From Candidatus Adlerbacteria bacterium (GTDB lineage: Bacteria; Patescibacteriota; Minisyncoccia; Phycocordibacterales; SBAW01), in the NCBI GenBank assembly GCA_028286685.1, contig JAQBRA010000004.1, positions 120,300-184,299 of the forward strand: a stretch of 64,000 bases of DNA, read 5' to 3'. The notes beneath the pieces were generated by a model that ran no database searches, was not told the origin of the DNA, and saw nothing but the letters and a program-made list of their open reading frames with translations. The position numbers and the translations under genes are program-made. Numbering within the stretch: the first letter of the stretch is position 1; every line of letters starts with the position of its first letter. Shown here piece after piece: positions 3,510 through 54,919 of this stretch.

Positions 3510-5419
3510 ACGGTTATTTTTTCCTCGATGTTCGTCTCAAACGACCGGGCAATAAGGCACGCGACGATCGCCGCTAGAGCAAGCGCCGCGAGCCACCAGA
3601 TGTGCCACACGGCCGCAAAGCCGAGCGCCAGGGCACATAGCGAAATAAGTACCCCCACAATAGTCTGCGTCGGCATTTCTATCTCGCCATGCGCCGGGCC
3701 TACCTCCATGCCGCCACCGTCCTCTTTATAGTTCCAGAACGCGTCGCGGCTATATATGTGCGGAATTGCGGCAAAGTTGTGCGCCGGAGGCGGCGAGGAC
3801 ACCGACCACTCCAGCGTGCGGCCGCCCCACGGGTCGTTGCCCGCCGGATTCTGCTTGCGGTCGCGGATGCTTACAAACAGCTGCAGGGCCTGCAGGAATA
3901 TTCCTGCGGCAATAATGCACAGCCCCACGGCCGCCACGATAAACAGCGGCTGCCACGAGGGATCGACCACATTAAGCCGGCGCGTGGCGCCCATGAGCCC
4001 CAGAGCATACAGCGGTACGAATGCGGTTAGGAATCCTATCAGCCAGCACCAGAACGCGTACTTGCCCAGGCGCTCGTTGAGCCTGAAGCCGAAGAGCTTG
4101 GGGAACCAGTAGGCAAAACCCGCAAAGAATCCGAACAGCACGCCGCCAATGATCATGTTGTGGAAGTGCGCCACCAAAAACAGCGAGTTGTGCACTTGAA
4201 AGTCGATGCCCGGAATAGACATCAAGACCCCGCTCATTCCACCGAGAATAAAGGTCGAGAGAAAGCCCATAAACCACAGCATCGGGGTCTCGAAGGTGAT
4301 GCGGCCGCGGAACATCGTAAAGAGCCAGTTGAACACCTTAACACCCGTCGGGATAGCAATGACCATGGTCATAATGCCGAAGAACGCGTTGACGTTGGCT
4401 GATGCGCCCATGGTAAAGAAGTGGTGCACCCATACCAAGAACGACAAGACCGCGATGCACATGGTCGCCACCACCATCGAGGTATAGCCAAAGAGCCTTT
4501 TGCGCGAGAATACCGGGACAATTTCGGAAAAGATGCCGAACGCCGGAAGTATCAGTATGTAGACCTCCGGGTGGCCCCACGCCCATATCAGGTTGACGTA
4601 CATCATGGCATTGCCGCCCAGCTCGGTCGTAAAGAAGTGCATGCCCAAGGTGCGATCTAGGCCCAAGAGCGCCAGAGTAACGGTGAGTATAGGGAAAGCA
4701 AAGACCACGAGGATCATCGAGGCCAGCGTGGTCCAGGCAAATATCGGCATGCGCATCATGGTCATGCCCGGCGCGCGCATTTTTATGATGGTCGCTATAA
4801 AGTTGATGCCGGCCAAAAGGGTGCCCACGCCCGCAATTTGCAGCGCCCATATGTAGTAGTCGACCCCCACCCCGGGGCTGTAGGCCAATTCCGAGAGCGG
4901 AGGGTATGCCAGCCAGCCGGTCGCGGCAAACTCCCCCACTACCAAAGAGAGGTTAATAAGCACCGCGCCCGCGACCGTAAGCCAGAACGAGAGCGAGTTA
5001 AGAAAGGGGTATGCCACGTCGCGCGCACCAATAAGTAGAGGGGTCGCCAGGTTTATAAGCGCAAACATAAACGGCATCGCCACAAAAAAGATCATGATGA
5101 CCCCGTGCGCGGTAAATATCTGGGCGTAATGGTCGGGGCTTAGGTAGCCCTCCGAGCCGGGCACCGCTATGGCCTGCTGCACGCGCATCATGGCAGCATC
5201 AACCGCTCCACGCAAAAGCATTACGCCCGCCAAAATAAAGTACATGACCGCGATCTTCTTGTGGTCTACGGTGGTCAGCCACTCGCGGTAAAACCACCCC
5301 CACAAACGGAAGTAGGTTAAAAGTGCCAGGGCACCCAATGCGCCGCCCACAATCATGAGCTGCGGGACCGTCTCAATGGGCCCGTGGAGGAATGCGCTTA
5401 AGGTAAGTTTTCCAAACAT
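3506..5419 (-). CDS. cyoB: Cytochrome o ubiquinol oxidase subunit I (heme-copper oxidase)
   Basis: 637 aa with N-terminus MFGKLTL...; carries heme-copper oxidase subunit I His ligands and the WFFGHPEVY-like motif WAWGHPEVY. Confidence 0.9.
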
Positions 5420-5421
5420 AG

Positions 5422-6225
5422 TTAGTGGGAGTGCCCCGTCGGATTGTGCGCGTCCATAAACTGCATAAGGACCGAATCAAACAAGCCGGGCGCTATGGCC
5501 GCATAAAACGTCTGTGGGACGCTAGAGCTCGGTTCTACCAATTCCTTATACTTCTCCCACGAGAGTGTCTCCGGAGAGGCCTTGATGCGGCCCACCCAGG
5601 CGTCAAACTCTTCGGGCGTTACGGCCCAAGCGGTAAACTTCATTGTAGCAAAGCCCTCGCCGCTGTAGTTGGCCGAGGCGCCCGCGTACGCGCCCGGCTC
5701 GGTGGCCATCAGATTAAGCGCGGTTACCATGCCAGTCATGGCGTATATCTGCCCGCCCAGCTGCGGTATCCAAAACGAGTTCATTGGCGCATCGGACGTA
5801 ATTCTAAACTCCACCGGCCTGTTTACCGGCATGTGCAGGTAGTTAACGGTCGCTATCCCCTGCTCTGGGTATATAAAGAGCCACTTCCAGTCCAGGGCCA
5901 CTACCTGGATTATCAGCGGGTCGCCGCCGGCCAGGGGTTTGGGCGGATGCAGCTCGTGCGTGCTGCCCCACGTAAGCGCGCCCAAGACCAGCACCACTTC
6001 TAAAGGGATAACCCACCACACCAGCTCCTCCATGCGGCCATGCTCCCAGTTGGGGCTGTATTTGGCTTTTTTGTTTGAGGCGCGGTACTTGTAGGCAAAG
6101 AAAAACAGCAGGAAGTAGACCGGGATGGCGACAATGAGCATGAAGCCCAGCGCCTGGAACATGAGGCCGCGCTCGGCGAGCGCTATGACGCCCTTGGGGT
6201 CTAGGACGGGGAACAACTCAAGCAT
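5422..6225 (-). CDS. cyoA: Cytochrome o ubiquinol oxidase subunit II
   Basis: 267 aa with two N-terminal TM helices and a cupredoxin-like C-terminus lacking the CuA ligands; first gene of the cyoABCDE block. Confidence 0.85.
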
Positions 6226-6312
6226 TCAGATATTGTAGCGCGGAAAGAGAAAAGGCCCCGCCACACTGAAGTGGCTAAGGGACCTTTGTTTACGCTACAG
6301 ATTACAGTTGAA

Positions 6313-6672
6313 TTAGCCCTTCCCCAACAACCATGCTTCCAGTTGCTGAGAAGTGTAACCATCCACGAAAGTGGTCACATGCCCATAGAAGCGGATTTCC
6401 TCTACGAGCTGCTCCTCGAATGTCGCCTTGCCTTTGACATCGAAGCGCGTAAGGGATTCCTCCCTTTCGCACTTCGGGCATTTCACCGAAAGCCACTGTC
6501 GGTATTTGAAGCCGCCGACCCACCAACCGCCCACATGGTCACGATGTATGAGGGGCTGATCAGTCAGCGTTCCCCCGCAGCCACACTTCTTGAGGGAGTT
6601 CGAATACCATTCAAGGGTTGGTTTCCAAAAAGGGTGCCGTTCCTTCTTCGCCTCTACCATTGTCATCTCCAA
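6313..6672 (-). CDS. Hypothetical Cys-rich (zinc-ribbon-like) protein
   Basis: KCGCGG and KCPKCE motifs. Sits upstream of the cyo operon on the same strand, with an AT-rich promoter-like region at 6673-6740. Confidence 0.35.
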   Translation of the reverse strand: MEMTMVEAKKERHPFWKPTLEWYSNSLKKCGCGGTLTDQPLIHRDHVGGWWVGGFKYRQWLSVKCPKCEREESLTRFDVKGKATFEEQLVEEIRFYGHVTTFVDGYTSQQLEAWLLGKG

Positions 6673-6834
6673 TGCAAATTAACTACTGAAATTAGTATAT
6701 AATACTATATATTATATGTCAAGTATAGCTGGGTGTACGGAACAAACTAGCACGGCTAATAAACCACTCGCACGGAGACTAGAACAAAGTCTCTCGCAAG
6801 AGCAGCTGAAATGCGCCTAAAAATCTATGGAAAG

Positions 6835-7200
6835 CTAAAGGCCCAAAGAGACCGCGACGATAAAGCACAGAGATGCGAGTACGGGAGAGGCGGCGACCTC
6901 TACGGGCAGCAGGCGCGAGACTTGCTTCATCCGGGCAAACACAAGAGCCTCCACGCCCACGCACACGCCCAAATAGAGCGCGATATGCATTACTAAAGAG
7001 CTTGCGAGCAGCGTTGGGGAAAGTACGGCCAAAGCCGTGCCGGTCAGGACCTCGAAGGCGGCAATGCCGCCGAGCCACAGCGCCGCGCGGGCGTAAGAAT
7101 CCTCGCGCTTACGGACGACCGAGTAAAGGGCGTAGCCGATAGCCACTAGCGTGGCTATCGTTGCAAGCAAATGGAGCGCCAATATGGCTTGGTACAACAT
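6835..7200 (-). CDS. Hypothetical membrane protein (121 aa, 4 TM)
   Basis: Hydrophobic ORF; last GC-rich gene before the AT-rich island. Confidence 0.4.
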   Translation of the reverse strand: MLYQAILALHLLATIATLVAIGYALYSVVRKREDSYARAALWLGGIAAFEVLTGTALAVLSPTLLASSLVMHIALYLGVCVGVEALVFARMKQVSRLLPVEVAASPVLASLCFIVAVSLGL

Positions 7201-7299
7201 TGGGTAATTGTAGCATTAGATGATATACAAACCCTTCTGTTCAGATTGTTGAAAGTCGCCTTAGCTTGGGAACTCTGCACCTAACTACCGTAGCCTTTA

Positions 7300-7524
7300 T
7301 TATCGGCTATCTAAAATTTGCCAGGTATTTTGAGTGTTGTTTTGAATTTCATTCAGGTAATCCTCAAAACTATTTATGATTCTAGTCGTACTACTATCAA
7401 CCATATCGGCAGTATAAAAAGTGTTGTCTTTTATTTCCCCGAGCCTGACGTAGCACATAATCAGCAGTATCAGGACGGCTATTTGGAACCAGAACTCCTT
7501 AAAAAAGGCCAGGGCTTTGCTCAT
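7300..7524 (-). CDS. Small hypothetical membrane protein within the AT-rich island
   Basis: 74-aa ORF with one TM helix; AT-rich codon usage matches the island. Confidence 0.3.
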   Translation of the reverse strand: MSKALAFFKEFWFQIAVLILLIMCYVRLGEIKDNTFYTADMVDSSTTRIINSFEDYLNEIQNNTQNTWQILDSR

Positions 7525-7572
7525 GGGCCGATTATACCCCAGAAATATAAACTGCTAAGAACACGAATAATC

Positions 7573-8175
7573 TCAAAGATTGCCGCAATGGTTCCTTAAT
7601 TCTTGTTGAAATTTATTATAGTCTTCAGATCTTCCCTTTAAAGAGCCAATATTGAACCCTTCGACTAACGAAGAATATATTTCCTCGTCCAAGACAGTGA
7701 AATCTATTTCTCCTAAATCTCTCTTTCCTGCAATTATCTTAAGTATCCTATCTTTTGGCTGCAAATTAGAATGAGGAAGTTCTTCATGCCCTGCCAGATT
7801 AAAATAATTAACAACGGAATCTTTTTCCTTTATAAAAAGGTCCTCAAAATGAGGCTCGACTACAAGTGTGGCCACAGGAATTCCTGGTATCAAACTTTCA
7901 TTAGAGCGAATCCAGGAACTTATCTCAGTTTTTCTTTCAGGATATGTATCGACATCAGAATGTACGATCAAAATATCTGGACGATCTCCTTGCATAAGGG
8001 TACTAACAGCAGCTGCAAGTTTTGGATATACAGACCCTTTCGTTTCATAAGGTTTCTTAAAATCAACACTAAAACTCAGAGGAAACTGAATCTCGAAGGA
8101 GGAAATCGTGCGTTCAACGAGTATCTCGAGAGGCCTCGAGTCCAACCTGCCTTCGCAAATAATGCCGATCAGCAT
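7573..8175 (-). CDS. TOPRIM-like nuclease-domain protein (DUF4276-like), partner of the upstream AAA_21 ATPase
   Basis: N-terminal IGIICEGRLD (conserved Glu) and HSDVDTY (DxD) resemble the TOPRIM catalytic motifs. Its start overlaps the stop of the ATPase gene (8175/8179), so the two are translationally coupled. Confidence 0.55.
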   Translation of the reverse strand: MLIGIICEGRLDSRPLEILVERTISSFEIQFPLSFSVDFKKPYETKGSVYPKLAAAVSTLMQGDRPDILIVHSDVDTYPERKTEISSWIRSNESLIPGIPVATLVVEPHFEDLFIKEKDSVVNYFNLAGHEELPHSNLQPKDRILKIIAGKRDLGEIDFTVLDEEIYSSLVEGFNIGSLKGRSEDYNKFQQELRNHCGNL

Positions 8176-8178
8176 AAA

Positions 8179-9297
8179 CTATTTTGAATACCGAGCTTGT
8201 AAGTACTCACTTAAGTCTCCGCCTTCTGCAAGTACTTTCGTGACTTGTGATATTTGCTCGGAATCTTTTAGACCAGTGAATCGACTACCTTTTATTGGAT
8301 CTTTTCCCACATAAATAACATCCTGCGGCCTAACTTTATTAATTATGGCGGTACTGTGAGTCGAGAAAACAAATTGTTTATTTGTTGTTCGAGAAATATT
8401 ATCAACAAAATTAATAATTTTTAGAATTCGTTCAGGATGTATGCCATTTTCTATTTCATCAAAGACAAAAGTGGAATAGTCATCACTAATAACCCCGGCG
8501 GCTAAATAGTAGAGTGTTCTTAAGTCTCCATGAGAAATAGCCTTAAACGACAATCTCCCTCGCATATTTTTTTCCGTAAATAATACAACATACTCATCAA
8601 TGCCTGCTAACTGAGTCGTGTTTGCGGGTGCAACAATATGCTCGAAAGAGTTCAAAGAAGGCAAGAGTTTTTTGGTCATTACCATAAACTTCTCATATTT
8701 CTCAGGAACCTTTGTTATCCTGTAAATTAAATCTTCAACCTTTTCAACCAGTACAGAAAGATCAATTACTGGTACATAAGTCTTACCTAATATCGATCGA
8801 ACTTTTTGAGCATCAGGATTTTTATACTGAGAAATTGCCGTTTGGTAATCACTAATAAGGAGAGGGATTGCTTTACTTTCAGAATTTAATAATTCACTAT
8901 TATTCCTAATAAAAACCTCCCGTGATTCTCCCGTAGGATCACTTGCAGTTAATTTCTCGTAAACAACTACCAGCTCTAGATTGTTGTCAGCTTTTTTTTG
9001 TGCAGAAACTCGAAACTCGTACACATATTCATTTTCATCACCATTAACAAGAGTGATTTTTATATCAAAAGTATCAGAGCTTGAGTTTCTGTAAAAAGCT
9101 TCTCCAGGTGTTTTAGTAAATTTTTTTACAGCATCATTAACATTGAGACTTGCAACTAGATCCTTTGTAAGCGAAATGGCCGTTATAAGATTGCTTTTCC
9201 CAACGCCATTATTGCCTACAATTATGGAAAATCGGTCAAGGTCAACTGACTCGTTTTCTATACTTTTGAAGTTCTTAATGTGGATGTTTTTTATCAT
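8179..9297 (-). CDS. AAA_21/ABC-type ATPase (OLD/PARIS AriA-like family)
   Basis: Walker A VGNNGVGKSNL, ABC-signature-like SHGDLRTL, Walker B FVFDEIENGIHP and H-loop FSTHS. Confidence 0.75.
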   Translation of the reverse strand: MIKNIHIKNFKSIENESVDLDRFSIIVGNNGVGKSNLITAISLTKDLVASLNVNDAVKKFTKTPGEAFYRNSSSDTFDIKITLVNGDENEYVYEFRVSAQKKADNNLELVVVYEKLTASDPTGESREVFIRNNSELLNSESKAIPLLISDYQTAISQYKNPDAQKVRSILGKTYVPVIDLSVLVEKVEDLIYRITKVPEKYEKFMVMTKKLLPSLNSFEHIVAPANTTQLAGIDEYVVLFTEKNMRGRLSFKAISHGDLRTLYYLAAGVISDDYSTFVFDEIENGIHPERILKIINFVDNISRTTNKQFVFSTHSTAIINKVRPQDVIYVGKDPIKGSRFTGLKDSEQISQVTKVLAEGGDLSEYLQARYSK

Positions 9298-9483
9298 TGA
9301 TGCCTGAAGTATACCTCAAAAGAGTATAAAGTCTTTATGAATAAACTTGTCTATACGCCTCGCGCTTTCCGGCCTCCACCATGTGGGTCACGGATAACTT
9401 TTCGCCGTCGCTACAAAGTTTCCGCTACCCCACCTCACGACCTCGCCTGCTGGCTCGGTAACGTTCCGGTTGTCCACCATACT

Positions 9484-9504
9484 GAAAAATCCGCCTCAAG
9501 GCGG
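9484..9504 (-). terminator. Intrinsic terminator downstream of tRNA-Ala
   Basis: Hairpin CCGCCTCAAGGCGG followed by ATTTTT in minus sense. Confidence 0.55.
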
Positions 9505-9516
9505 ATGTTTTCATGT

Positions 9517-9592
9517 TGGTGGACCCTACCGGGATCGAACCGGTCACCTCCTCATTGCAAATGAGGCGCTCTACCAGATGAGCTAAGGGCCC
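9517..9592 (-). tRNA. tRNA-Ala (anticodon TGC) with encoded CCA
   Basis: Minus-sense GGGCCCTTAGCTCATCTGGTAGAGCGCCTCATTTGCAATGAGGAGGTGACCGGTTCGATCCCGGTAGGGTCCACCA. Has the G3:U70 identity pair, anticodon loop TT-TGC-AA and T-loop GGTTCGATCC. Confidence 0.9.
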
Positions 9593-47790: not shown

Positions 47791-47798
47791 GGTAAGTA

Positions 47799-47825
47799 GC
47801 GGGTATCCGGGACAATGCTAGAACC
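47799..47825. repeat. Array repeat copy 0 (degenerate, about 21 of 28 matches): GCGGGTATCCGGGACAATGCTAGAACC
   Basis: Aligns to the consensus GCTGGGTGTATGGGACGATGTTGGAACC; lies 9 nt upstream of the DUF2200 ATG. Confidence 0.6.
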
Positions 47826-47829
47826 TTAC

Positions 47830-48300
47830 TTAGATGCTATCGGATTTTATATCCACGGCTTTTTGCAAAATCCGTTCAAGCACTGACGCCGCAGCGGCGG
47901 TTATGGCAGAGGCGATAATTATAAGAAGGCTTATGGCAACGCCGCCCGCGATATCGTCGCCAGGCCGAACTACAAGCAGGTAGGCCAGTGGCGCCGCGAC
48001 GAAACCGATAAGGGCTAGCGCACAGTATTTCATAGTCCGCAGGGCTTTCAGCGACGATTGCGAGAATACCTCATTCCGCCCCGCGAGCCCCAAGAGCTTG
48101 AATGCTTGGTAGAGCGCGATGAAAAAAGCGATAGACGCCGTATATGCATACGCCAAGAACAGATCGTTGAAGTAGATCTCAAAGAGCGTGGCATGCGCAT
48201 TCCTGCCCTCAAGGTGGGGTTCCCAAAGCATAAAGGCAAGAACGCCGATGCCGATGAGCATAACGACCACTTGAAGAAATAGTGATGGGATCCTTTTCAT
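47830..48300 (-). CDS. Cassette gene: hypothetical 4-TM membrane protein (possibly DUF2975-like)
   Basis: Flanked by repeat copies 0 and 1. Confidence 0.5.
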   Translation of the reverse strand: MKRIPSLFLQVVVMLIGIGVLAFMLWEPHLEGRNAHATLFEIYFNDLFLAYAYTASIAFFIALYQAFKLLGLAGRNEVFSQSSLKALRTMKYCALALIGFVAAPLAYLLVVRPGDDIAGGVAISLLIIIASAITAAAASVLERILQKAVDIKSDSI

Positions 48301-48368
48301 GGCCGGTTCTTATAAATTTTCATCCAAAGCATTCCTACTTAGAACTTTCCTTGCTCTTAAGAAGTAAC

Positions 48369-48398
48369 CCGCTGGGTGTATGGAACGATGTTGGAACC
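48369..48398. repeat. Array repeat copy 1: CGCTGGGTGTATGGAACGATGTTGGAACC
   Basis: One mismatch to the consensus. Confidence 0.9.
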
Positions 48399-48408
48399 TC
48401 CTTAAGTT

Positions 48409-48837
48409 CTATTTATTTGCATTGAACTCCACAATCCACTCAATACCGTATTTATCTCTAAACATACCGGCATATGTTCCCCAAGGACTTTCCCCGATTG
48501 CCCCTTCTACTTGTCCTCCAATAGAAAGACCATTAAATATTTTTTCCGCTTCTTCTTTGTTGTCTGCATTTAGATGGATTTTACTCCTATTTTCATTTTC
48601 ACTTACTTTTCCCATAACTTCAGGAACATCGTTTCCTATTAGCATATTTCCGCCGCCAATAGGCAAAGTAATCAGCATGATTTTGTTCTCCTCTATATCT
48701 CTAACCGGGAATTCAGGACTCGCAAGATCTTTGAAACGAATCACCTTTGTAAAATCTCCGCCAAAAACAGATTTATAAAAAGTAAACGCTTCTTCGGCAT
48801 TACCATTAAAATTAATCCAAGGGTTTATTGCTGTCAT
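48409..48837 (-). CDS. Cassette gene: VOC/PhnB-like glyoxalase-superfamily protein (paralogue class of 42599..43111)
   Basis: MTAINPWINFNGNAEEAFTFYKSVFGG. The -10 box TATAAT (48844-48849) lies 6 nt upstream of the ATG, suggesting a leaderless transcript. Confidence 0.7.
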   Translation of the reverse strand: MTAINPWINFNGNAEEAFTFYKSVFGGDFTKVIRFKDLASPEFPVRDIEENKIMLITLPIGGGNMLIGNDVPEVMGKVSENENRSKIHLNADNKEEAEKIFNGLSIGGQVEGAIGESPWGTYAGMFRDKYGIEWIVEFNANK

Positions 48838-48880
48838 AGTGAAATTATATACTTGAGACCTTGGTCACACAACATACTCT

Positions 48881-48970
48881 GAATTTGCTGGGTGCACGGG
48901 CGACCTGATTTTTAACGAACAGAGCGAGTATAAAAATGGAAGTACTCTTGTGGTAACGATGTTGGAACCA
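48881..48970. repeat. Array repeat copy 2, split at its centre: left half GAATTTGCTGGGTGCACGGG, then a 54-nt unrelated insert, then right half ACGATGTTGGAACC
   Basis: The two halves map exactly to positions 1-14 and 15-28 of the consensus. Confidence 0.8.
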
Positions 48971-49037
48971 TTGTAGCAAAAGAAGAAGCGGCTACCCCAT
49001 AGGATAGCCGCCTGCTGAAATGACCGGGGTCAGAGCC

Positions 49038-49619
49038 TTAGCCAGTAATAACCCGACAAATGCGGCCGACAAATCCGAGCTTCTTGCCTCGTCTTTGAAA
49101 CTGGAGGAGATCAGTGCGTGGAATGTCGTAAGCATATCTTGCCCGAGCCATGGCAATTTCCTGGTCTGGATAGAGGCTAACCCAGGTGCGACGCTGAATT
49201 TTCTCGGTTTCTTCGAATACGGCCTTGCCGTCTTGGACTACCCCAACAGGAAGAAAGTCCGTCTCGAACAAGGTGATCTCACGGCGAGTAGTCTCGGAAC
49301 CGATATCTTCGTCGAAGTAGAGCTTGCCGAATCTCATCGACGTATCCCACTCGTGGAATCGGTCGACACATGTCGCCTCTAGACCCGGAAGCAGGCTGTC
49401 CATGAATGCCTGCAACTCAGGACCGGTATAAATACCCTGATTGGGCGCGACAATGAAGTCGACGGTGTGAGTCCAAAAGCCATCGCGGTGTGGAAAATGA
49501 TTCAGCTCGTTGACCGCGACGATCTGGATATTCGTGTTGCCTTGGAGAGCAGCACGGACGGAAGCAAGCTTAGACATGCAAGAAGCGTCCTTTGGCGCTG
49601 GTTGAACAACTATACGCAA
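49038..49619 (-). CDS. Cassette gene: hypothetical protein (193 aa; TTG start at 49619 or ATG MSKLASV at 49580)
   Basis: Flanked by repeat copies 2 and 3, with a terminator-like hairpin GCGGCTACCCCATAGGATAGCCGC downstream. Confidence 0.55.
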   Translation of the reverse strand: MRIVVQPAPKDASCMSKLASVRAALQGNTNIQIVAVNELNHFPHRDGFWTHTVDFIVAPNQGIYTGPELQAFMDSLLPGLEATCVDRFHEWDTSMRFGKLYFDEDIGSETTRREITLFETDFLPVGVVQDGKAVFEETEKIQRRTWVSLYPDQEIAMARARYAYDIPRTDLLQFQRRGKKLGFVGRICRVITG

Positions 49620-49646
49620 ATTACAACAAATTATCTAAAAAGTCGA

Positions 49647-49673
49647 GCTGGGTGTTTGGGACGATGTTGGAAT
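49647..49673. repeat. Array repeat copy 3: GCTGGGTGTTTGGGACGATGTTGGAATC
   Basis: Two mismatches to the consensus. Confidence 0.9.
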
Positions 49674-49675
49674 CT

Positions 49676-50074
49676 TTATTGAGTAGGAATGCCCCTTTTA
49701 GCCAAGTCCTCTATGGACTCAAATTCCAGATAATTCTGGGTCAATTCCTCTCCTGCTTGTATATCCCGAGCCGCTACCAAGTAAGCATCTGCGTGAGCCG
49801 AATCCTGCGTAACCGTTGCCTCGTAGGAGTGATTGATGAAATGCGATACATCAAAGTCGACATGCCACTTTTGGCTAGGCTCATCAAAGAATCCCCACCA
49901 CTGAACTTCATGCTTCTCTTTCTCATCCAAAGAGTCGAACTGCTCTTGAGTAAGGTTCACGTCGAGCAAGGGACTCGCGGTATAAATGAGCGTGCCTTTA
50001 GAAATATTTTGGTTGGCAAAAAGTCCGACACCATGATGCTCTGATTTATCGAGATTGTACTTGATATGAATCAT
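49676..50074 (-). CDS. Cassette gene: small SET-domain protein (132 aa)
   Basis: GVGLFANQNISKGTLIY, NHSYEAT (NHSCxPN-like) and GEELTQNY (post-SET-like) motifs. Confidence 0.65.
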   Translation of the reverse strand: MIHIKYNLDKSEHHGVGLFANQNISKGTLIYTASPLLDVNLTQEQFDSLDEKEKHEVQWWGFFDEPSQKWHVDFDVSHFINHSYEATVTQDSAHADAYLVAARDIQAGEELTQNYLEFESIEDLAKRGIPTQ

Positions 50075-50100
50075 GCCGATACAGTATCACAAAAAGACTG

Positions 50101-50128
50101 GCTGGGTGTATGGGACGATGTTGGAACC
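50101..50128. repeat. Array repeat copy 4 (perfect consensus) with an 80-nt conserved extension carrying terminator hairpin GCCGCCC...GGGCGGC
   Basis: The extension is homologous to the one after copy 9 at 53646-53710. Confidence 0.9.
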
Positions 50129-50209
50129 ATTCTGACACATGAATATGGAAAAGAAAATGCCGCCCAAGTATAGCCGGGGCGGCTCGGTATCGTATAATTT
50201 TTAGGTCGA

Positions 50210-50617
50210 TCAGTTCACTCTACGACTTGTCTGGTGCAAGTCATAGAATCGATAAAGAGCCGGACATGGAAACGGCGCGGACGAAGTACCCCAGACCTGC
50301 TCCCCTTTTTCCTCCATCTCGCGCAGGACTTCCGCCCCGCGATCGAGATCGTTGGTGTTTAAGAGAAAATTGATATGGTATTCCCCCGCTTCGCTCCCAA
50401 TTTGGGTTCGAAACAGCACCCCCGAGCGTGCGCCGACCATATGGGTATCCCATGCCGTCTCAATAATTCCGTCGCAGACATCACTGACAATATGCATACG
50501 TTCCCATTTCTTTAGGTAGAGATCACATGCAGCCATCTTAAGCGCCGCTCGCACTTGGTCGGTAATCATACCTGGACCCTTTTCGACCATGAGGCAAGTC
50601 CAAGAGTCGTTGGACAT
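50210..50617 (-). CDS. Cassette gene: hypothetical protein, possibly SRPBCC/Bet v1-like (135 aa)
   Basis: ATG MSNDSWTCLMVEKGP at 50617; fold call is weak. Confidence 0.5.
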   Translation of the reverse strand: MSNDSWTCLMVEKGPGMITDQVRAALKMAACDLYLKKWERMHIVSDVCDGIIETAWDTHMVGARSGVLFRTQIGSEAGEYHINFLLNTNDLDRGAEVLREMEEKGEQVWGTSSAPFPCPALYRFYDLHQTSRRVN

Positions 50618-50685
50618 CGTCAGTCTCCCGATTTGTTCCTGATGCAGCTGAAAAGATAATACAACAAAGTATATCAAAAGCAATA

Positions 50686-50713
50686 GCTGGGTGTATGGGA
50701 CGATGTTGGAACC
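50686..50713. repeat. Array repeat copy 5 (perfect consensus)
   Basis: GCTGGGTGTATGGGACGATGTTGGAACC. Confidence 0.9.
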
Positions 50714-50760
50714 TTATTAACAGAAATCGCCTAACAAAGTCAGGCGACTCTGCTAGGCGG

Positions 50761-51039
50761 TTAAATGATTGGGACTTGGCCCTCGTCAGGACATTCCGGG
50801 ACGAGCTTTTCGTCCAAGAGATAAAGTTTACCGCTAAGCCAGTCGCCGCTGGCATAGCTTTCATACATCCGGTCGTATTCGGACCGAACAGTAACATCGC
50901 CTGCGATTTTCCAGACCCCGTTTTCTGGAATCACAACGAGCCGCTTTCCGGCAGGCGTATATGGTGGAGTTTCGCTCAGATGACCCTGAACAAGAACCCC
51001 TTTTGCCTCGACGGCTTTCACTCCGTAATAAGTGCCCAC
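50761..51039 (-). CDS. Cassette gene: hypothetical protein (92 aa, GTG start with SD GGAGA)
   Basis: SD CAGGAGAAAGAA immediately precedes GTG 51039. Confidence 0.5.
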   Translation of the reverse strand: MGTYYGVKAVEAKGVLVQGHLSETPPYTPAGKRLVVIPENGVWKIAGDVTVRSEYDRMYESYASGDWLSGKLYLLDEKLVPECPDEGQVPII

Positions 51040-51108
51040 TTCTTTCTCCTGATGTTCTAGTGCGATTAACTTTTATAAAAATACATGAATTACAGAACAT
51101 GTCAATAG

Positions 51109-51135
51109 TTTGGTGTGTGGGACGATGTTGGAACC
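51109..51135. repeat. Array repeat copy 6: TTTGGTGTGTGGGACGATGTTGGAACC
   Basis: Left arm diverged; the shared tail CTATTTTGA overlaps the stop of the next gene. Confidence 0.85.
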
Positions 51136-51401
51136 TATTTTGATTTTAAAACAACAATGTAAGTCCCTATCCATGAACCCAAGGCCAAAGGAAGAATGTA
51201 CAAGTAATTTTGCACATAACTTAGAACTCCAACCGCAATAAGAAAGTGCATTAGTGCGCCTACCGTAGCAGACTTAAAAGGTTGCTTCTCAGCTATTGCG
51301 AGTGTGTAATAAGCATACATACCATCTACCAAAATGTAGGCGAAGAAAACAACGAGAGCGGAAAGCGGATTAAAGGTCTGCCAAAGATCAAAAAAGTTCA
51401 T
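51135..51401 (-). CDS. Cassette gene: small 3-TM membrane protein (88 aa)
   Basis: Repeat copy 7 ends 6 nt upstream of its ATG; probably co-transcribed with 51435..51845. Confidence 0.55.
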   Translation of the reverse strand: MNFFDLWQTFNPLSALVVFFAYILVDGMYAYYTLAIAEKQPFKSATVGALMHFLIAVGVLSYVQNYLYILPLALGSWIGTYIVVLKSK

Positions 51402-51407
51402 AAATTT

Positions 51408-51435
51408 GCTGGGTGTATGGGACGATGTTGGAACC
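51408..51435. repeat. Array repeat copy 7 (perfect consensus)
   Basis: The TAG stop of the upstream cassette overlaps the repeat end (GGAACCTATTTTGA). Confidence 0.9.
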
Positions 51436-51845
51436 TATTTTGAGGCTAGATAGGCCTCTATCTTGGCCACGTCTATCAAATCCTTCTCTCTAGCATAAAC
51501 CTCCTTAACCAGTTTTACATCTCGCAAGCCTGCAAACGGCACTCCGTCAATTAGTTCGGAATTCTTTTTCAGCCGCTCAAAAGTCATTTCTGCAATGCCA
51601 CCAACATTTGGATACAGCTCAATAGTCCCCTCGTCATTGGCTACACCCGCCTCCTCTGTCGGGATAATTCTCGGATGATGGTGCCAACCCTCTTTGTTGC
51701 GATACTCATCTAGAAGTTTGGGAGAAACAACAATATCGATATCATTTGTTTCTTTTAACCCGCGCGCTGCTAACGCCGCACCTCCAATTACTACGTACTC
51801 GTCAACTGGAAAGTTATGCTTTTTTATTTCTGAAAAGATATCCAT
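51435..51845 (-). CDS. Cassette gene: minimal nucleotidyltransferase (pol-beta superfamily) fold protein
   Basis: VVIGGAALAARGLKETNDIDIVV matches the G[SG]-x9-13-[DE]h[DE]h MNT signature. Confidence 0.6.
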   Translation of the reverse strand: MDIFSEIKKHNFPVDEYVVIGGAALAARGLKETNDIDIVVSPKLLDEYRNKEGWHHHPRIIPTEEAGVANDEGTIELYPNVGGIAEMTFERLKKNSELIDGVPFAGLRDVKLVKEVYAREKDLIDVAKIEAYLASK

Positions 51846-51864
51846 AATTTACTTAACTTAATTA

Positions 51865-51892
51865 GCTGGGTGTATGGGACGATGTTGGAACC
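51865..51892. repeat. Array repeat copy 8 (perfect consensus)
   Basis: GCTGGGTGTATGGGACGATGTTGGAACC. Confidence 0.9.
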
Positions 51893-51949
51893 TTTTTAGT
51901 TAATGGCACCTGACGCTAAAATCCTTTTCAGTACAGCCAATAATAAAAG

Positions 51950-53542
51950 CTATTTTATTGAAGCAATGAATGCCTTTGTTTTTGGTCCGAAGTATCCCAA
52001 AGAAGGAGTGATTCCATTTGTTTTTTGAAACTTAGCAAGTGCTGCTCGAGTAAGCGCGCCAAAGAAATCCGTTTCATTTCCTGCAGACCCAATTCCTGAA
52101 AGTGCCACGGGAGATTCGTGTCCGTTCAAAAACTCTTGGAGCGCTTTCACGTCGTCTCCCGAGAAGCCTGTTTTAAGATCACGCGTAAAAGAAACGGGCT
52201 GCACATCTCCAGATTGAAATACTTGCGGAAAGTTTTTCATCAAGTCTTCTGCTTTTTGAGTTTCACTCATTGCAATAAGATTTTTTACTCGACTCTGAAC
52301 TGAACTTCCATGGCTCGATCGGTGGTGTGGTTCAGGAGTTGGGGTTGCCGTAGGAGTGACCGTAAGAGTTGTCGGTGGAGGAAGAGGCTGATCCGATGTT
52401 AAGGAAAAGAGTACACCATTATTGTTGACTCCACCAAACTCAGTAACGCCATAAATCACATCGCTACTACTTCTGAATAATGTAGCATCAGCATTTTTAC
52501 CATCGGTACCATCAAAGTTATGCAGTACGGTATAGGTGCCAGAGTCAGCTGGATCAAAGGAGAAGACGACACCTTTGCTATTAGTGCCTCCCGAAAATGT
52601 GATTCCATAAAATACACCACCAATCTCAAGAAGAGAACCTTGTGAACTGTATCCCTCAGCAGTATCAAAGTTATAAAGCACGGTATACGTGCCCGAGCCA
52701 GCAGGATCATAGGAGAAGATGACGCCTTTGTTATTGGTCCCTCCTGCGCCTGTCATTCCATAAAATTTTCCACCGTATGCAACAAGAGAATTACCTCCCA
52801 CGCCATTCCCTTCAGTACCGTTAAAATTATGCAGCACGGTATACGTGCCGGAACCTGCAGGATCGTAAGAAAAGATAGTGCCTTGGTTAGATAATCCCCC
52901 AGTGCCTTCCCCATAAAAAACGCCATCCGACAGAATCATCGAACCATAATAAGGTCCCCCTCCTTCAGTACCATTAAAATTATGTAGCACAGTAAAGGTA
53001 CCCGAGCCAGCGGGATTGTAGGAATAGATGACACCGCGGCTATCAGGTCCTCCACTTAGAGTAGTTCCATACAGAACTCCATCCTTCTCTAGAAGAGCGC
53101 CTTGGGGAATTGCGCCATGGGTATCATCAAAGCTATGCAGCACCGTGAAAGTGCTTGAATCTGCAGGATCAATAGAATAGAGAACGCCTTTATTGTTTGT
53201 TCCTCCACCGTCCGTTACACCATAAAAAATACCATTGTATTCGAACAATGTTCCAGAAGGATTCCCTCCCTCAGTACCATTAAAATTATAAAGCACGGTG
53301 TAGGTGCCAGAGCCTGCGGGGTCATAGGAGTAGATGACGCCTTTGCTATTTGCTCCCCCCGCATATCCTACTCCATAAATAATTCCATCTTTTTCAATTA
53401 AAAAATCATACGGGTCTGTACCGGTTAGGGAACTAAAATCATACAGTTTTAAATAGGCAAAGGCAGCGAAGGCGGTATGCGCAGATACTAAAAAGGTGCT
53501 TACGAAGATGAAAAACGAGACTATATAAAAAGATAACTTCAT
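51950..53542 (-). CDS. Cassette gene: secreted protein with Gloeo_Verruco-type beta-propeller repeats and a C-terminal peptidoglycan-binding domain
   Basis: Signal peptide; at least 9 repeats of G..YTVLHNFNGTEGG.P.G.L....G.FYG.T..GG..N.GVIFSYDPA; C-terminal PG_binding_1-like (LQEFLNGH...GYFGPKTKAFI). Confidence 0.75.
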   Translation of the reverse strand: MKLSFYIVSFFIFVSTFLVSAHTAFAAFAYLKLYDFSSLTGTDPYDFLIEKDGIIYGVGYAGGANSKGVIYSYDPAGSGTYTVLYNFNGTEGGNPSGTLFEYNGIFYGVTDGGGTNNKGVLYSIDPADSSTFTVLHSFDDTHGAIPQGALLEKDGVLYGTTLSGGPDSRGVIYSYNPAGSGTFTVLHNFNGTEGGGPYYGSMILSDGVFYGEGTGGLSNQGTIFSYDPAGSGTYTVLHNFNGTEGNGVGGNSLVAYGGKFYGMTGAGGTNNKGVIFSYDPAGSGTYTVLYNFDTAEGYSSQGSLLEIGGVFYGITFSGGTNSKGVVFSFDPADSGTYTVLHNFDGTDGKNADATLFRSSSDVIYGVTEFGGVNNNGVLFSLTSDQPLPPPTTLTVTPTATPTPEPHHRSSHGSSVQSRVKNLIAMSETQKAEDLMKNFPQVFQSGDVQPVSFTRDLKTGFSGDDVKALQEFLNGHESPVALSGIGSAGNETDFFGALTRAALAKFQKTNGITPSLGYFGPKTKAFIASIK

Positions 53543-53617
53543 ACCAAAATTGAATCAACCTAAATCCTTCAGATGAAGTATATATCACTTTTCGAAGCGA
53601 TTTTACGCTTAAAATTT

Positions 53618-53645
53618 GCTGGGTGTATGGGACGATGTTGGAACC
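53618..53645. repeat. Array repeat copy 9 (perfect consensus) with a conserved 65-nt extension
   Basis: The extension ATTTTGACACACCAATTTAGAAAAGAAAATGCCGCCC... parallels the one after copy 4. Confidence 0.9.
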
Positions 53646-53716
53646 ATTTTGACACACCAATTTAGAAAAGAAAATGCCGCCCTATAGTCCGGAGCGACTT
53701 GCCGCTAGTTTAAAAA

Positions 53717-54040
53717 TTAAATGTGGAAAGAAAGGGCAAGAATAGCAGATTCGCCATTTTCTGTTCGCCGCCAATTCACAAAGGCAGTACTCTCAACTAC
53801 TTTTGAATAAAGTTCTGGGTATTTCTCTTTTAAATCTTTAGCGTTATCTAATTGTAACGTTACGATTTCTCCTCCTTTTACTTGTACCTTGTTCATCTCA
53901 GTATCTAGGCTAGACATGCAGTCAATCCAAGCATTCATATTTCTTCCGTAGTAGTCAGGGAAGCCAAAAACTTCGTAAAACGTATCGTGCAAAGTCTCTT
54001 CGCTGACAATTTTGCCGGCATCAATTATTACTGTTTTCAT
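53717..54040 (-). CDS. Cassette gene: barstar-like (barnase-inhibitor family) immunity protein
   Basis: MKTVIIDAGKI...LHDTFYEVFGFPDYYGRNMNAWIDCM. A perfect TATAAT (54048-54053) lies 1 nt before an upstream in-frame ATG, so the mRNA probably starts at MKTV (leaderless). The longer ORF N-terminus is just the repeat read in frame. Confidence 0.65.
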   Translation of the reverse strand: MKTVIIDAGKIVSEETLHDTFYEVFGFPDYYGRNMNAWIDCMSSLDTEMNKVQVKGGEIVTLQLDNAKDLKEKYPELYSKVVESTAFVNWRRTENGESAILALSFHI

Positions 54041-54089
54041 GTCCATGATTATACTACGTGTCTCGGTCGCGATAATCTCGAGTGAATTT

Positions 54090-54117
54090 GCTGGGTGTAT
54101 GGGACGATGTTGGAACC
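54090..54117. repeat. Array repeat copy 10 (perfect consensus) with extension carrying hairpin GCGGCTCC-TAATTTG-GGGAGCCGC
   Basis: The extension is homologous to the one after copy 2 (48971-49015). In minus sense the hairpin plus TTCTTCTTTT forms a terminator. Confidence 0.9.
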
Positions 54118-54184
54118 ATTGTAGCAAAAGAAGAAGCGGCTCCTAATTTGGGGAGCCGCTGTATATAAGTCGGAAAATATTTGT

Positions 54185-54559
54185 TCAACCAGGAGTAGAA
54201 GTCCGGACTTCTTCCATAATTACGGAAACCTGTGCGGCAAATTCCGTAGGAAATACTTCCGCAACAAGACTAGGAATATCTCTGCGGATGAATATTTCAA
54301 CTGTCGGAACACGGTCGACTGCATGGTGCTTGATCATCTGACCGTCGCGGTCTTTGCCACACTTTAGATTACTGAAAGCAAGTTCGATTTCCATCAAGAA
54401 TTGAGACGGACAAATCGTATCGCCGCGCAGTTGCGTAGAAAGAAAGTCTGCGAATTCATGTGAGTAGTTACCCACAACACTTTTTGGCCAAAATGCGGAG
54501 AGTTTTTCTTTGATCGGTTCGAGGGGAAGATCAATTTCGTCTTTGGGATCAAGTATCAT
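54185..54559 (-). CDS. Cassette gene (tRNA-proximal): hypothetical protein (124 aa)
   Basis: ATG MILDPKD at 54559 preceded by SD AGAGGAG; the track start at 54586 is a TTG. Confidence 0.5.
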   Translation of the reverse strand: MILDPKDEIDLPLEPIKEKLSAFWPKSVVGNYSHEFADFLSTQLRGDTICPSQFLMEIELAFSNLKCGKDRDGQMIKHHAVDRVPTVEIFIRRDIPSLVAEVFPTEFAAQVSVIMEEVRTSTPG

Positions 54560-54783
54560 TACATGCTCCTCTTTGTTGAAGTCCAAAAATCACATTACAA
54601 CAAAGTATTTGAAAAGTCACTAGCGGGGAAACATGGTTCGGTCAGGCGTTCAAAAGTTGTCGTCACAACTTTTGCCGCACGACCCTGCCTCGCTCCCGCC
54701 TGTGCTCGCGCGGGTCCCGCACTACTTCGAGTACTTCCATTTTCTAAAGCGGAGTACCCCTAAGAAAATTAGGTCGCTCCGGC

Positions 54784-54830
54784 TTTCGAATCCATGCCGC
54801 GAAGCATCCCATGCTTCGCTTCTCCCAGCT
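54784..54830 (+). other. Inverted partial copy of the tRNA-Gln 3' half (TTCGAATCCATG / TCTCCCAGCT) interrupted by a 24-nt perfect palindrome
   Basis: 12 plus 10 nt are identical to the tRNA-Gln T-arm and acceptor 3' strand. The copy is in opposite orientation and sits 18 nt from the tRNA 3' end. Confidence 0.7.
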
Positions 54831-54848
54831 TCATTACTACGTATTTAG

Positions 54849-54919
54849 CTGGGAGACATGGATTCGAACCATGATTCACGGCTTCAAAGGCCGCTGTCCT
54901 ACCATTAGACGATCTCCCA
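54849..54919 (-). tRNA. tRNA-Gln (anticodon TTG), no encoded CCA
   Basis: Minus-sense TGGGAGATCGTCTAATGGTAGGACAGCGGCCTTTGAAGCCGTGAATCATGGTTCGAATCCATGTCTCCCAG. Has a 7-bp acceptor stem, anticodon loop CT-TTG-AA and T-loop GGTTCGAATCC. Confidence 0.85.

Follow-up and report, generated by a model that had tools for sequence, protein, structure and literature searches.

A 64,000-nucleotide (nt) stretch of a Candidatus Adlerbacteria bacterium genome (contig JAQBRA010000004.1, positions 120,300 to 184,299; henceforth referred to as 'the window') carries, downstream of its tRNA-Gln gene, a row of short single-gene modules separated by directly repeated copies of a 28-nt sequence (henceforth referred to as the 28-mer), which we regard with high confidence as a cassette array that is delimited by recombination sites and anchored at tRNA-Gln. 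As to its origin, sequence comparisons lead us to favour, at a probability of roughly 70%, accretion at tRNA-Gln of cassettes without an integrase of their own, with a large serine recombinase (LSR) as the putative enzyme acting in trans; in the best reading, each cassette would end in a P-type attachment half-site of a Patescibacteria-specific LSR family. An earlier note on this DNA had described a cassette array with a site that is neither attC nor dif and possibly with a recombinase encoded elsewhere, and this core reading is supported by related genomes, in which the flanks of the array are kept and the cassettes differ.

The 28-mer reads GGTTCCAACATCGTCCCATACACCCAGC in the sense of the array's genes and occurs in the window in nine copies with no more than three mismatches (plus-strand span 48371-54117), whereas none is expected by chance (100 shuffles). 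A listing of repeat families and a scan of both strands showed that all copies are direct and that the opposite strand has none; together with the copy search, this bears out the direct orientation and the six perfect copies described earlier. A profile hidden Markov model (HMM) trained on 289 copies of the repeat from other genomes recovered the same nine copies. It also detected a split copy by its left half (48956-48972, E=0.001) and, as a weak match, a degenerate copy (47809-47829, E=0.27); the remainder of the 64 kb gave no significant match. In the split copy, GGTTCCAACATCGT is followed by an insert of about 56 nt and then by CCCGTGCACCCAGC. The array thus has 11 sites (nine intact, one split and one degenerate) within 47797-54117 and not 12 as previously counted, although the earlier repeat coordinates were accurate to 0-6 nt. 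The sites and their anchor are given below from the tRNA outward, in plus-strand coordinates; R1 to R8 and R10 were each found by the shuffle-tested search and by the HMM.

54848..54919, minus strand: tRNA-Gln(ttg) (ARAGORN; Rfam, 65.5 bits)
54090..54117, minus strand: R1, perfect 28-mer
53618..53645, minus strand: R2, perfect 28-mer
51865..51892, minus strand: R3, perfect 28-mer
51408..51435, minus strand: R4, perfect 28-mer
51108..51135, minus strand: R5, 28-mer with three mismatches
50686..50713, minus strand: R6, perfect 28-mer, preceded by a terminator hairpin (50728-50759)
50101..50128, minus strand: R7, perfect 28-mer
49647..49674, minus strand: R8, 28-mer with two mismatches
48887..48972, minus strand: R9, split site (repeat families; HMM for the left half), with site positions 1-14 at 48956-48969, positions 15-28 at 48887-48900 and the insert at 48901-48956
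48371..48398, minus strand: R10, 28-mer with one mismatch
47797..47829, minus strand: R11, degenerate distal site GGTTCTAGCATTGTCCCGGATACCCGCTA (sequence; weak HMM match, E=0.27)

R11 is the outer boundary of the array, and to its left the GC content is back at flank level. The spacing of the repeats (300-1753 nt, with a gene in every interval, compared to spacers of about 30-40 nt) led us to reject a CRISPR array. The insert of R9 has a homologue in a Patescibacteria locus (L019, 5908-5962), which lies in the opposite orientation, shares an identical core of 22 nt and splits a degenerate repeat; possible explanations are an invertible segment or a very small insertion that targets the site. 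In the same locus (5327-5372) a repeat is broken by a 13-nt palindrome.

The case for exchangeable modules comes from related loci. In a collection with one genome per prokaryotic species, the core of the 28-mer was found at 19 places, all of them in metagenome-assembled genomes of Patescibacteria (candidate phyla radiation, CPR) from several classes and several of them with arrays of 5-6 copies, and the motif is present on at least 120 metagenome contigs with a GC content of 0.28-0.64. Among the loci retrieved (8-20 kb each), two from Patescibacteria (L014 and L019) show 68-70% DNA identity to the housekeeping genes that flank the array of the window, so that the window itself presumably comes from this group. 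Between L002 and L006, identity is 77% across serS, dus and dnaX as far as the final base of tRNA-Gln, beyond which homology ceases, and L007 and L009 share a distal flank at 91% identity and have one and at least three cassettes, respectively. Six independent pairs of loci (among 140; e.g. L142 and L150) have a cassette in common (82-97% identity) whose homology begins or ends within 0-3 nt of the edge of a repeat, and in the array of L161 one cassette that is also found in L123 is joined to another that is also found in L171. For the window itself, the Logan contig L001 consists of exactly its module 3 with the repeat at both ends, and exact look-ups of its cassette proteins returned either nothing or only two short contigs matching the window, from one sample (SRR13312974). 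Whereas the earlier note had named the same genes in the same order in relatives as the observation that would count against a cassette array, what we find is that the flanks from dnaX to tRNA-Gln are kept, the cassettes differ and homology ends at the repeats.

The cassettes are also uniform in form. Over 177 of them the median unit is 568 bp, the median distance from site to start codon is 26 nt and that from stop codon to site is 7 nt; their open reading frames (ORFs) run along the array in 100 cases and against it in 50 (about 2:1, a third being reversed), and the variable site positions 19, 22 and 23 agree more within arrays than between them. The cargo outside the window includes HAD, NUDIX, methyltransferase, GNAT, HTH and ASCH proteins, and most cassettes have no family. 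A cluster of attC sites lacking an integron integrase (CALIN), in which the repeats would be unusual attC sites for an IntI-type integrase, would offer a ready explanation for such an integron-like architecture, given the compact single-ORF cassettes, the orientation bias, the homogeneity of site variants within an array and a cargo rich in GNAT, NUDIX and unknown proteins. It is, however, barely credible once the site itself is considered: six copies with 20-nt flanks in gene sense, two of them also on the opposite strand, showed no hairpin formation (z -1.5 to +1.7), there are neither R''/L''...L'/R' boxes nor an inverted second half, and the sequence rather than a structure is conserved. 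Moreover, no IntI was found in the window, and phmmer on the ORFs of about 140 related loci returned a single tyrosine recombinase, which is XerD-like (L153). Rfam searches at gathering and permissive thresholds found only tRNA and nothing at the site; since the site also lies outside transcription units where terminators are clear, we rejected the 28-mer as an RNA element.

The consensus of 268 copies is RGTTCCAACATCGTCCCAGACNSCCAGC, and a logo of 297 copies with flanks shows a sharp block of about 33 nt (an A at -4, AAA, the 28-mer and a weak AA) with a T-rich stretch upstream and no second, inverted block or half-site downstream. These properties also bear on modules of the Xer/dif type (pdif-like or IMEX-like, where IMEX are integrative mobile elements exploiting Xer), in which the repeat would be a dif-like site for a host XerC/D-type recombinase. 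The length of exactly 28 nt is that of such a site, Xer enzymes are usual in bacterial genomes and act in trans, and in L153 the gene for the XerD-like protein (346 amino acids (aa), 5388-6471) directly follows the last repeat in the opposite orientation. We consider this explanation very unlikely nonetheless, as the sequence and the logo have no dyad symmetry when read as 11-6-11 (the left arm GGTTCCAACAT and the reverse-complemented right arm GCTGGGTGTAT agree at a terminal AT and at scattered bases), all copies are direct and do not alternate, a switch in GC skew at the array is not seen in the window, and the tie of the site to tRNA 3' ends, with a tail that changes with the tRNA (see below), has no rationale for dif. 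The adjacent Xer gene, the sole datum for a link to Xer, occurs in one of about 150 loci and is probably the housekeeping flank of that array. With no fold, no dyad symmetry and only direct copies, the 28-mer is therefore neither attC nor a dif-type site, as the earlier note had held, nor is it a CRISPR repeat; and since there is neither a fold nor a second inverted half-site, the analogies to integrons and pdif modules are architectural only. Viral carriers of the motif were also rejected: the 33 IMG/VR matches to a 20-nt core (L021-L053) all lie inside one conserved cytosine-methyltransferase gene of high-GC phages (21-nt identity, protein motif VVWDDVGTFDG), a coincidental match in coding sequence that can mislead motif searches.

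What the site resembles instead is the end of the tRNA. The 28-mer consists of a conserved arm of 17-18 nt, GTTCCAACATCGTCCCA, and a tail of about 10 nt whose sequence mimics the acceptor (3') end of tRNA-Gln (...CCAGC). In the window, the 3'-terminal 23 nt of tRNA-Gln (54848-54870) read GGTTCGAATCCATGTCTCCCAGC in gene sense, and the consensus of these 23 nt over 29 loci is GGTTCGAnyCCnnGTCnssCAGC. The distance from GGTTC to CAGC is 23 nt in the tRNA-Gln of these loci compared to 28 nt in the repeat; when both are aligned at their right ends, the inner 15 nt of the tRNA end match the 28-mer at 12 positions, and the outer GGTTC, present in both, lies 5 nt further out in the 28-mer. In serine integrases the attP half-site is 25 bp long and the zinc-ribbon motif lies 5 bp nearer the centre in attB (PMC3783163). 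The 5-nt offset of GGTTC matches this offset between attP and attB of LSRs, and on that ground the 28-mer and the tRNA end may be read as half-sites of the P type and of the B type, respectively. The position of the tRNA fits such a role: in all 35 loci that contain a tRNA-Gln it lies upstream of the repeats and on their strand, and none of these loci has a repeat upstream of it. The first module of the window begins directly after the ...CCCAGC of tRNA-Gln, and the first cassette gene of most loci begins only a few bases past ...CAGC; because the first cassette begins there, the 3' end of the tRNA holds the first position of the array and is thus presumably its first, anchoring B-type site. 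Repeat positions 22-24 showed no co-variation with the tRNA-Gln acceptor of the host.

Two further observations concern tRNA-Gln ends. After tRNA-Gln in the window (54620-54847) and after a perfect 28-mer in a Saccharibacteria locus (L003, 3926-4082) there is a related noncoding module, not found in the other retrieved loci, with two inverted copies of a sequence like the 3' end of tRNA-Gln; one copy has an inserted GC hairpin, at which the two loci differ by compensatory changes (GCGAAGCA...TGCTTCGC in one and GCGGGCAA...TTGCCCGC in the other). This module may represent a structured RNA or DNA, or else a B-type site in inverted orientation. Orphan 23-nt ends of tRNA-Gln, exactly from GGTTC to CAGC and without the rest of the tRNA, are found inside arrays (L020, 3853-3873; L115, 98-120; L182, 11449-11471), in the latter two next to an LSR gene, which suggests that the 23-mer is a self-contained B-type unit that is duplicable or carried along.

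Clustering of the ORFs of all loci yielded one recombinase family, an LSR of about 490 aa with Resolvase, Recombinase and Zn_ribbon_recom domains. It has more than 2600 homologues at E<1e-20, those with a name being from Parcubacteria/Paceibacterota, and no match in an IMG/VR search with the LSR protein. About 14 related loci have an LSR element within the array or close to it, and in the approximately eight in which both ends are visible the element adjoins the 3' end of a tRNA and the motif closes its far end. The elements are 3.7-7 kb long. Their LSR gene, located at the element end beside the att junction (L054, L115, L177, L178, L174, L182, L183 and L184; not in the window), is convergent with the tRNA, has its last four codons and stop codon inside the acceptor and T-stem of the tRNA, and is usually preceded by an XRE regulator and an initiator of the RepSA/REP_ORF2-G2P type. 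L115, L054, L177 and L183 have their element at tRNA-Gln; in L177 it is followed by eight more cassettes, and L183 has six sites. L182 has an LSR element and 13 sites (12 more cassettes after it). As in cassettes, a cargo ORF abuts the arm in the full elements.

Elements at other tRNAs have the same 17-nt arm and a tail that mimics the 3' end of their own tRNA. Thus, tRNA-Lys ends in AGGGCGGAC and the Lys site is GTTCCAACATCGTCCCAT-AGGGCGGAC; tRNA-Trp ends in GGCCCGC and the Trp site is TTTCGAATCTCGTCCCACAG-GGCCCGC (...CCCACAG-GGCCCGC); tRNA-Ile ends in GCGCGCAC and the Ile site is GTTCTAATATCGTCCCACA-GCGCGCAC (...CCCACA-GCGCGCAC); and tRNA-Pro ends in ACCCGAC, with an integrase-less insert whose site ends in ...CCCAAAC-ACCCGAC. 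This co-variation of the tail with the target tRNA is the strongest argument for an attachment site over a regulatory motif. A conserved intergenic motif for regulation or processing (promoter, operator, terminator or an element like repetitive extragenic palindromes) with no role in recombination would explain why the 28-mer is always intergenic, often after a stop codon or terminator and before the next start. Such a motif is, however, highly improbable for further reasons: the 28-mer is confined to one island in 64 kb, gene order around it is not kept in related genomes, it lies outside transcription units where terminators are clear, and it marks the ends of LSR elements. In L184, which has tandem LSR elements, one element's arm is continuous with the 3' end of the second LSR gene, the product predicted if insertion took place at the tRNA-proximal junction of an element already in place. 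A pair of tRNA-Pro loci (L004 and L005) was considered as an empty-site comparison and proved to be rearranged in too complex a way to interpret.

Some LSR loci have additional features. In L115 (108-1568), L177 (10001-11461) and L178 (10001-11461) the stop of the LSR frame is supplied by the T-stem of the tRNA (CTAG). In an excised circle the frame would be predicted to continue for about 13 codons through the 28-mer (...LGVWDDVGT...), so that integrated and episomal forms would encode different C-termini. In the Saccharibacteria locus L003, a LOOT RNA (6610-6725; Rfam RF03000, 73.7 bits) is located between the LSR gene and a Shedu-like ORF, at a distance of about 2.5 kb from the 28-mer, and in L184 (11470-12734) an insertion sequence (rve transposase and HTH_Tnp_2 gene) has entered between the LSR gene and its tRNA-Ile target, so that the integrase no longer adjoins its junction.

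The accretion model would work as follows. An LSR, encoded elsewhere in the genome or only transiently present on an element, would recombine a circular DNA bearing the 28-mer with the 3' end of tRNA-Gln, with the crossover in or beside the shared ...CAGC, so that the tRNA would stay intact. The tRNA junction would remain a usable target, and new insertions would push older cassettes outward, giving the succession tRNA, cassette, 28-mer, cassette, 28-mer and so on, in which the outermost site would be the oldest and decayed (in the window, the degenerate site at 47797). The tRNA site and any downstream 28-mer being direct repeats, one or several cassettes between them could be excised. A more far-reaching version, in which the arrays would form a phylum-wide analogue of integrons based on a serine recombinase, with the 3' end of tRNA-Gln (less often of other tRNAs) as fixed capture site, an asymmetric 28-nt half-site as cassette tag and single genes inserted and excised reversibly by one LSR family, on sites with just one specific half-site and without a directionality factor, is a tentative proposal that we hold to be somewhat doubtful; if true, tiny, element-poor genomes would have a dedicated and shareable pool of accessory genes.

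Several points weigh against the LSR model. No LSR gene or remnant is present in the 64-kb window by phmmer or tblastn, and an LSR was found in only about 10% of the retrieved arrays, which were retrieved with patterns that favoured Gln-type tails. Characterised LSR sites have two pseudo-symmetric half-sites, whereas in the array conservation is confined to the left half and the right side varies; no pseudo-palindromic pair of half-sites is apparent in the logo, where only the weak AA is conserved to the right of the 28-mer. A circle formed by a cassette would therefore have no recognisable P' arm. LSR elements have as their right half the 3' coding end of the integrase, which is similar among elements and is not a mirror of the arm (by hand, mirror symmetry between the arm and the integrase-side half-site is weak at best). 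Canonical LSRs need a directionality factor to recombine attL-like junctions, so repeated insertion at one tRNA requires non-canonical behaviour, as in Ccr. The crossover is not fixed either: comparisons of att sites point to the terminal CAGC, whereas the 14/14 division of the split copy and the linkage of variants (positions 22-23 travel with the downstream cassette in L161, L171 and L123) hint at a more central crossover. Lastly, the tails are not exact copies of the tRNA-Gln acceptor of the host, and no circular or excised form was observed.

Some of these points, the rarity of LSRs in arrays and the lack of a conserved right half-site in cassettes, would be expected if the array were a graveyard in which the 28-mers are leftover att arms of successive LSR elements, each reduced to one cargo gene, with RecA-type shuffling between repeats of 28-35 bp (e.g. 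after natural transformation) and without site-specific mobilisation of single cassettes. That the cargo ORF of full LSR elements abuts the arm exactly as in cassettes also speaks for such decay, and the greater uniformity of repeat variants within arrays than between them fits gene conversion. Set against this are the sharp stop of conservation after ...CAGC in about 300 copies, the compactness of the cassettes, with medians of 26 nt and 7 nt on either side of the ORF that are unexpected from random deletion, and the absence from the window of the LSR or Rep fragments that decay should leave. The conservation of the arm across hosts with a GC content of 0.28-0.64 also argues for continuing selection on the site. 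Overall, we think decay and shuffling unlikely, and retain accretion by an LSR in trans as the preferred one.

The array belongs neither to the staphylococcal cassette chromosome (SCC) family nor to the integrons, and probably not to the tycheposons. In function the systems nearest to it are SCC and tycheposon islands, while in form it is integron-like. Ccr LSRs mobilise tandem SCC-like cassettes without ccr, with excision and circularisation in trans (PMC11470126). SCC and the array have in common insertion by an LSR (a putative one in the array) that targets a conserved housekeeping gene at its 3' end and leaves it active, and tandem elements with directly repeated att sites whose anchor-side junction stays usable (presumably so in the array). 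They differ in the anchor (rlmH (orfX) as opposed to tRNA-Gln), in size (20-70 kb and tens of genes as opposed to a median of about 0.57 kb and a single gene) and in the site, which in the array combines a 17-nt arm with a mimic of the tRNA end and serves at least five tRNA species; Ccr is probably also from a different LSR clade than the Patescibacteria LSR. Tycheposon islands are anchored at tRNAs and incoming elements push older ones into the island, 910 of 937 tycheposons using tyrosine recombinases and a few using LSRs (10.1101/2020.12.28.424599). Like the array, these Prochlorococcus islands start at a tRNA, contain repeated att sequences and degenerate remnants and occur in streamlined hosts with few other mobile elements, and their integrase and replication module recall the full elements of the array's relatives. 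Their repeats, however, are partial tRNA copies, whereas 17-18 of the 28 nt in the array's site are not tRNA-like and only about 10 nt are, and dense arrays of single-gene modules with near-identical sites have not been described for them.

With integrons the array shares a fixed entry site (the tRNA-Gln end taking the role of attI), a site at the 3' end of each cassette, compact and mostly single-ORF cassettes, homogeneous site variants and small accessory cargo. In contrast, integrons rely on a tyrosine recombinase and on attC sites that fold as single-stranded hairpins and are conserved in structure more than in sequence, as opposed to an unfolded conserved sequence and a candidate serine recombinase here, and differ from the array with its one third of reversed cassette ORFs. 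The LSR sites of phages (A118/LI, phiC31 and Bxb1) come with the same domain architecture, with an attP that overlaps the 3' end of the integrase gene, and with an outer motif 5 bp further out in the P-type than in the B-type half-site and inner motifs that are similar (PMC3783163). These phage systems have two pseudo-symmetric half-sites and are unidirectional without a directionality factor, whereas one conserved half-site and reuse of the product junction are implied here. Actinomycete integrative and conjugative elements of the pSAM2 type resemble the full LSR elements in their XRE regulator, RepSA/REP_ORF2-G2P rolling-circle initiator, site-specific recombinase and location at tRNA 3' ends, but pSAM2 uses a tyrosine integrase. 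Integrase-less units flanked by att sites resemble the cis-mobilizable elements (CIMEs) that are formed by accretion (ICESt1/CIME), although CIMEs are few per locus and kilobases long, unlike the cassettes here.

What is new is the composite site of a fixed arm and a tRNA-end mimic and its reuse over at least five tRNAs, together with the single-gene scale and density of the cassettes and their spread across Patescibacteria; in the searchable literature we found no description of such tRNA-Gln cassette arrays. The earlier statement that the array cannot be placed in any described system holds insofar as it appears to be a member of no known family, and does not hold insofar as it is a variant of the accretion islands at the 3' ends of tRNAs or genes (SCC, tycheposons). 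Patescibacteria have genomes of about 1 Mb in which few mobile elements have been recognised, and the ways in which they acquire and swap accessory genes are poorly understood. A hot spot downstream of tRNA-Gln with a sequence tag makes their flexible gene pool directly cataloguable in genomes and metagenomes. The LSR family may act on strongly asymmetric sites, reuse the product junction and be retargeted to at least five tRNAs via about 10 nt, and these suggested properties bear on recombinase mechanism and on tools for genome engineering.

The window contains 11 modules, ten between repeats and one between the 3' end of tRNA-Gln and the first repeat, and each has one plausible minus-strand ORF, in agreement with the single gene per interval described earlier; the ORF at 50761-51039 is the least certain. 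Pfam assigned DUF2975, glyoxalase/VOC, SET, PG_binding_1 and barstar families and a weak nucleotidyltransferase match, and five ORFs have no family. The modules are, from the tRNA outward:

54118..54847, minus strand: module 1, tRNA-proximal, with a 124-aa ORF of no family (54185-54559), a hairpin terminator (54135-54160) and the noncoding inverted tRNA-Gln-3'-end-like module (54620-54847) (ORF, Pfam and hairpin analysis)
53717..54046, minus strand: module 2 gene, barstar (Pfam PF01337, E=5e-15)
51950..53542, minus strand: module 3 gene, secreted repeat protein of 530 aa with a C-terminal PG_binding_1 domain (Pfam) and internal repeats of 153 nt
51435..51845, minus strand: module 4 gene, 136 aa, weak nucleotidyltransferase (DUF6036) match (ORF, Pfam), the stop codon overlapping the first base of R4
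51135..51401, minus strand: module 5 gene, membrane protein of 88 aa, no family (ORF, Pfam)
50761..51039, minus strand: module 6 gene, 92 aa, no family, least certain ORF (ORF, Pfam)
50210..50617, minus strand: module 7 gene, 135 aa, no family (ORF, Pfam)
49676..50074, minus strand: module 8 gene, SET domain (Pfam PF00856, E=9e-14)
49038..49577, minus strand: module 9 gene, 179 aa, no family (ORF, Pfam), with a terminator at 48986-49013 (hairpin)
48409..48837, minus strand: module 10 gene, glyoxalase/VOC (Pfam)
47830..48300, minus strand: module 11 gene, DUF2975 membrane protein (Pfam)

The DUF2200 gene, previously counted as cargo, falls just beyond the last, degenerate site. The array has a GC content of 0.41-0.50 compared to about 0.55-0.60 in its flanks. 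A start context of its own for each gene, often with its own terminator, as had been proposed, is not supported in this form: consensus promoters and terminators are no more frequent in the array than in shuffles, although three clear terminator hairpins do stand just before repeats (54160-54135, 50759-50728 and 49013-48986). None of the five cassette proteins of the window that were tested gave a defence match with PADLOC. The absence of a tyrosine or serine recombinase from the 64 kb, noted before, was upheld: neither phmmer nor tblastn found one or a remnant with XerD, lambda Int, Hin, a CPR Xer and three CPR LSRs as queries, a screen of limited sensitivity. Genes conserved near the arrays (HI0933-like flavoprotein, RluA-like and dnaX) were considered for the recombinase and rejected as housekeeping flanks. 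Elsewhere in the window, a second patch of low GC content (0.37-0.43; 7000-9500) adjoins tRNA-Ala (9517-9592), and neither the arm of the 28-mer nor a tRNA-Ala repeat was found in it. It is a candidate defence island, which encodes an AAA ATPase like AbiL/AriA/HEC-01 (8179-9297; PADLOC, E=8e-33) and a 200-aa partner of no family (7573-8175).

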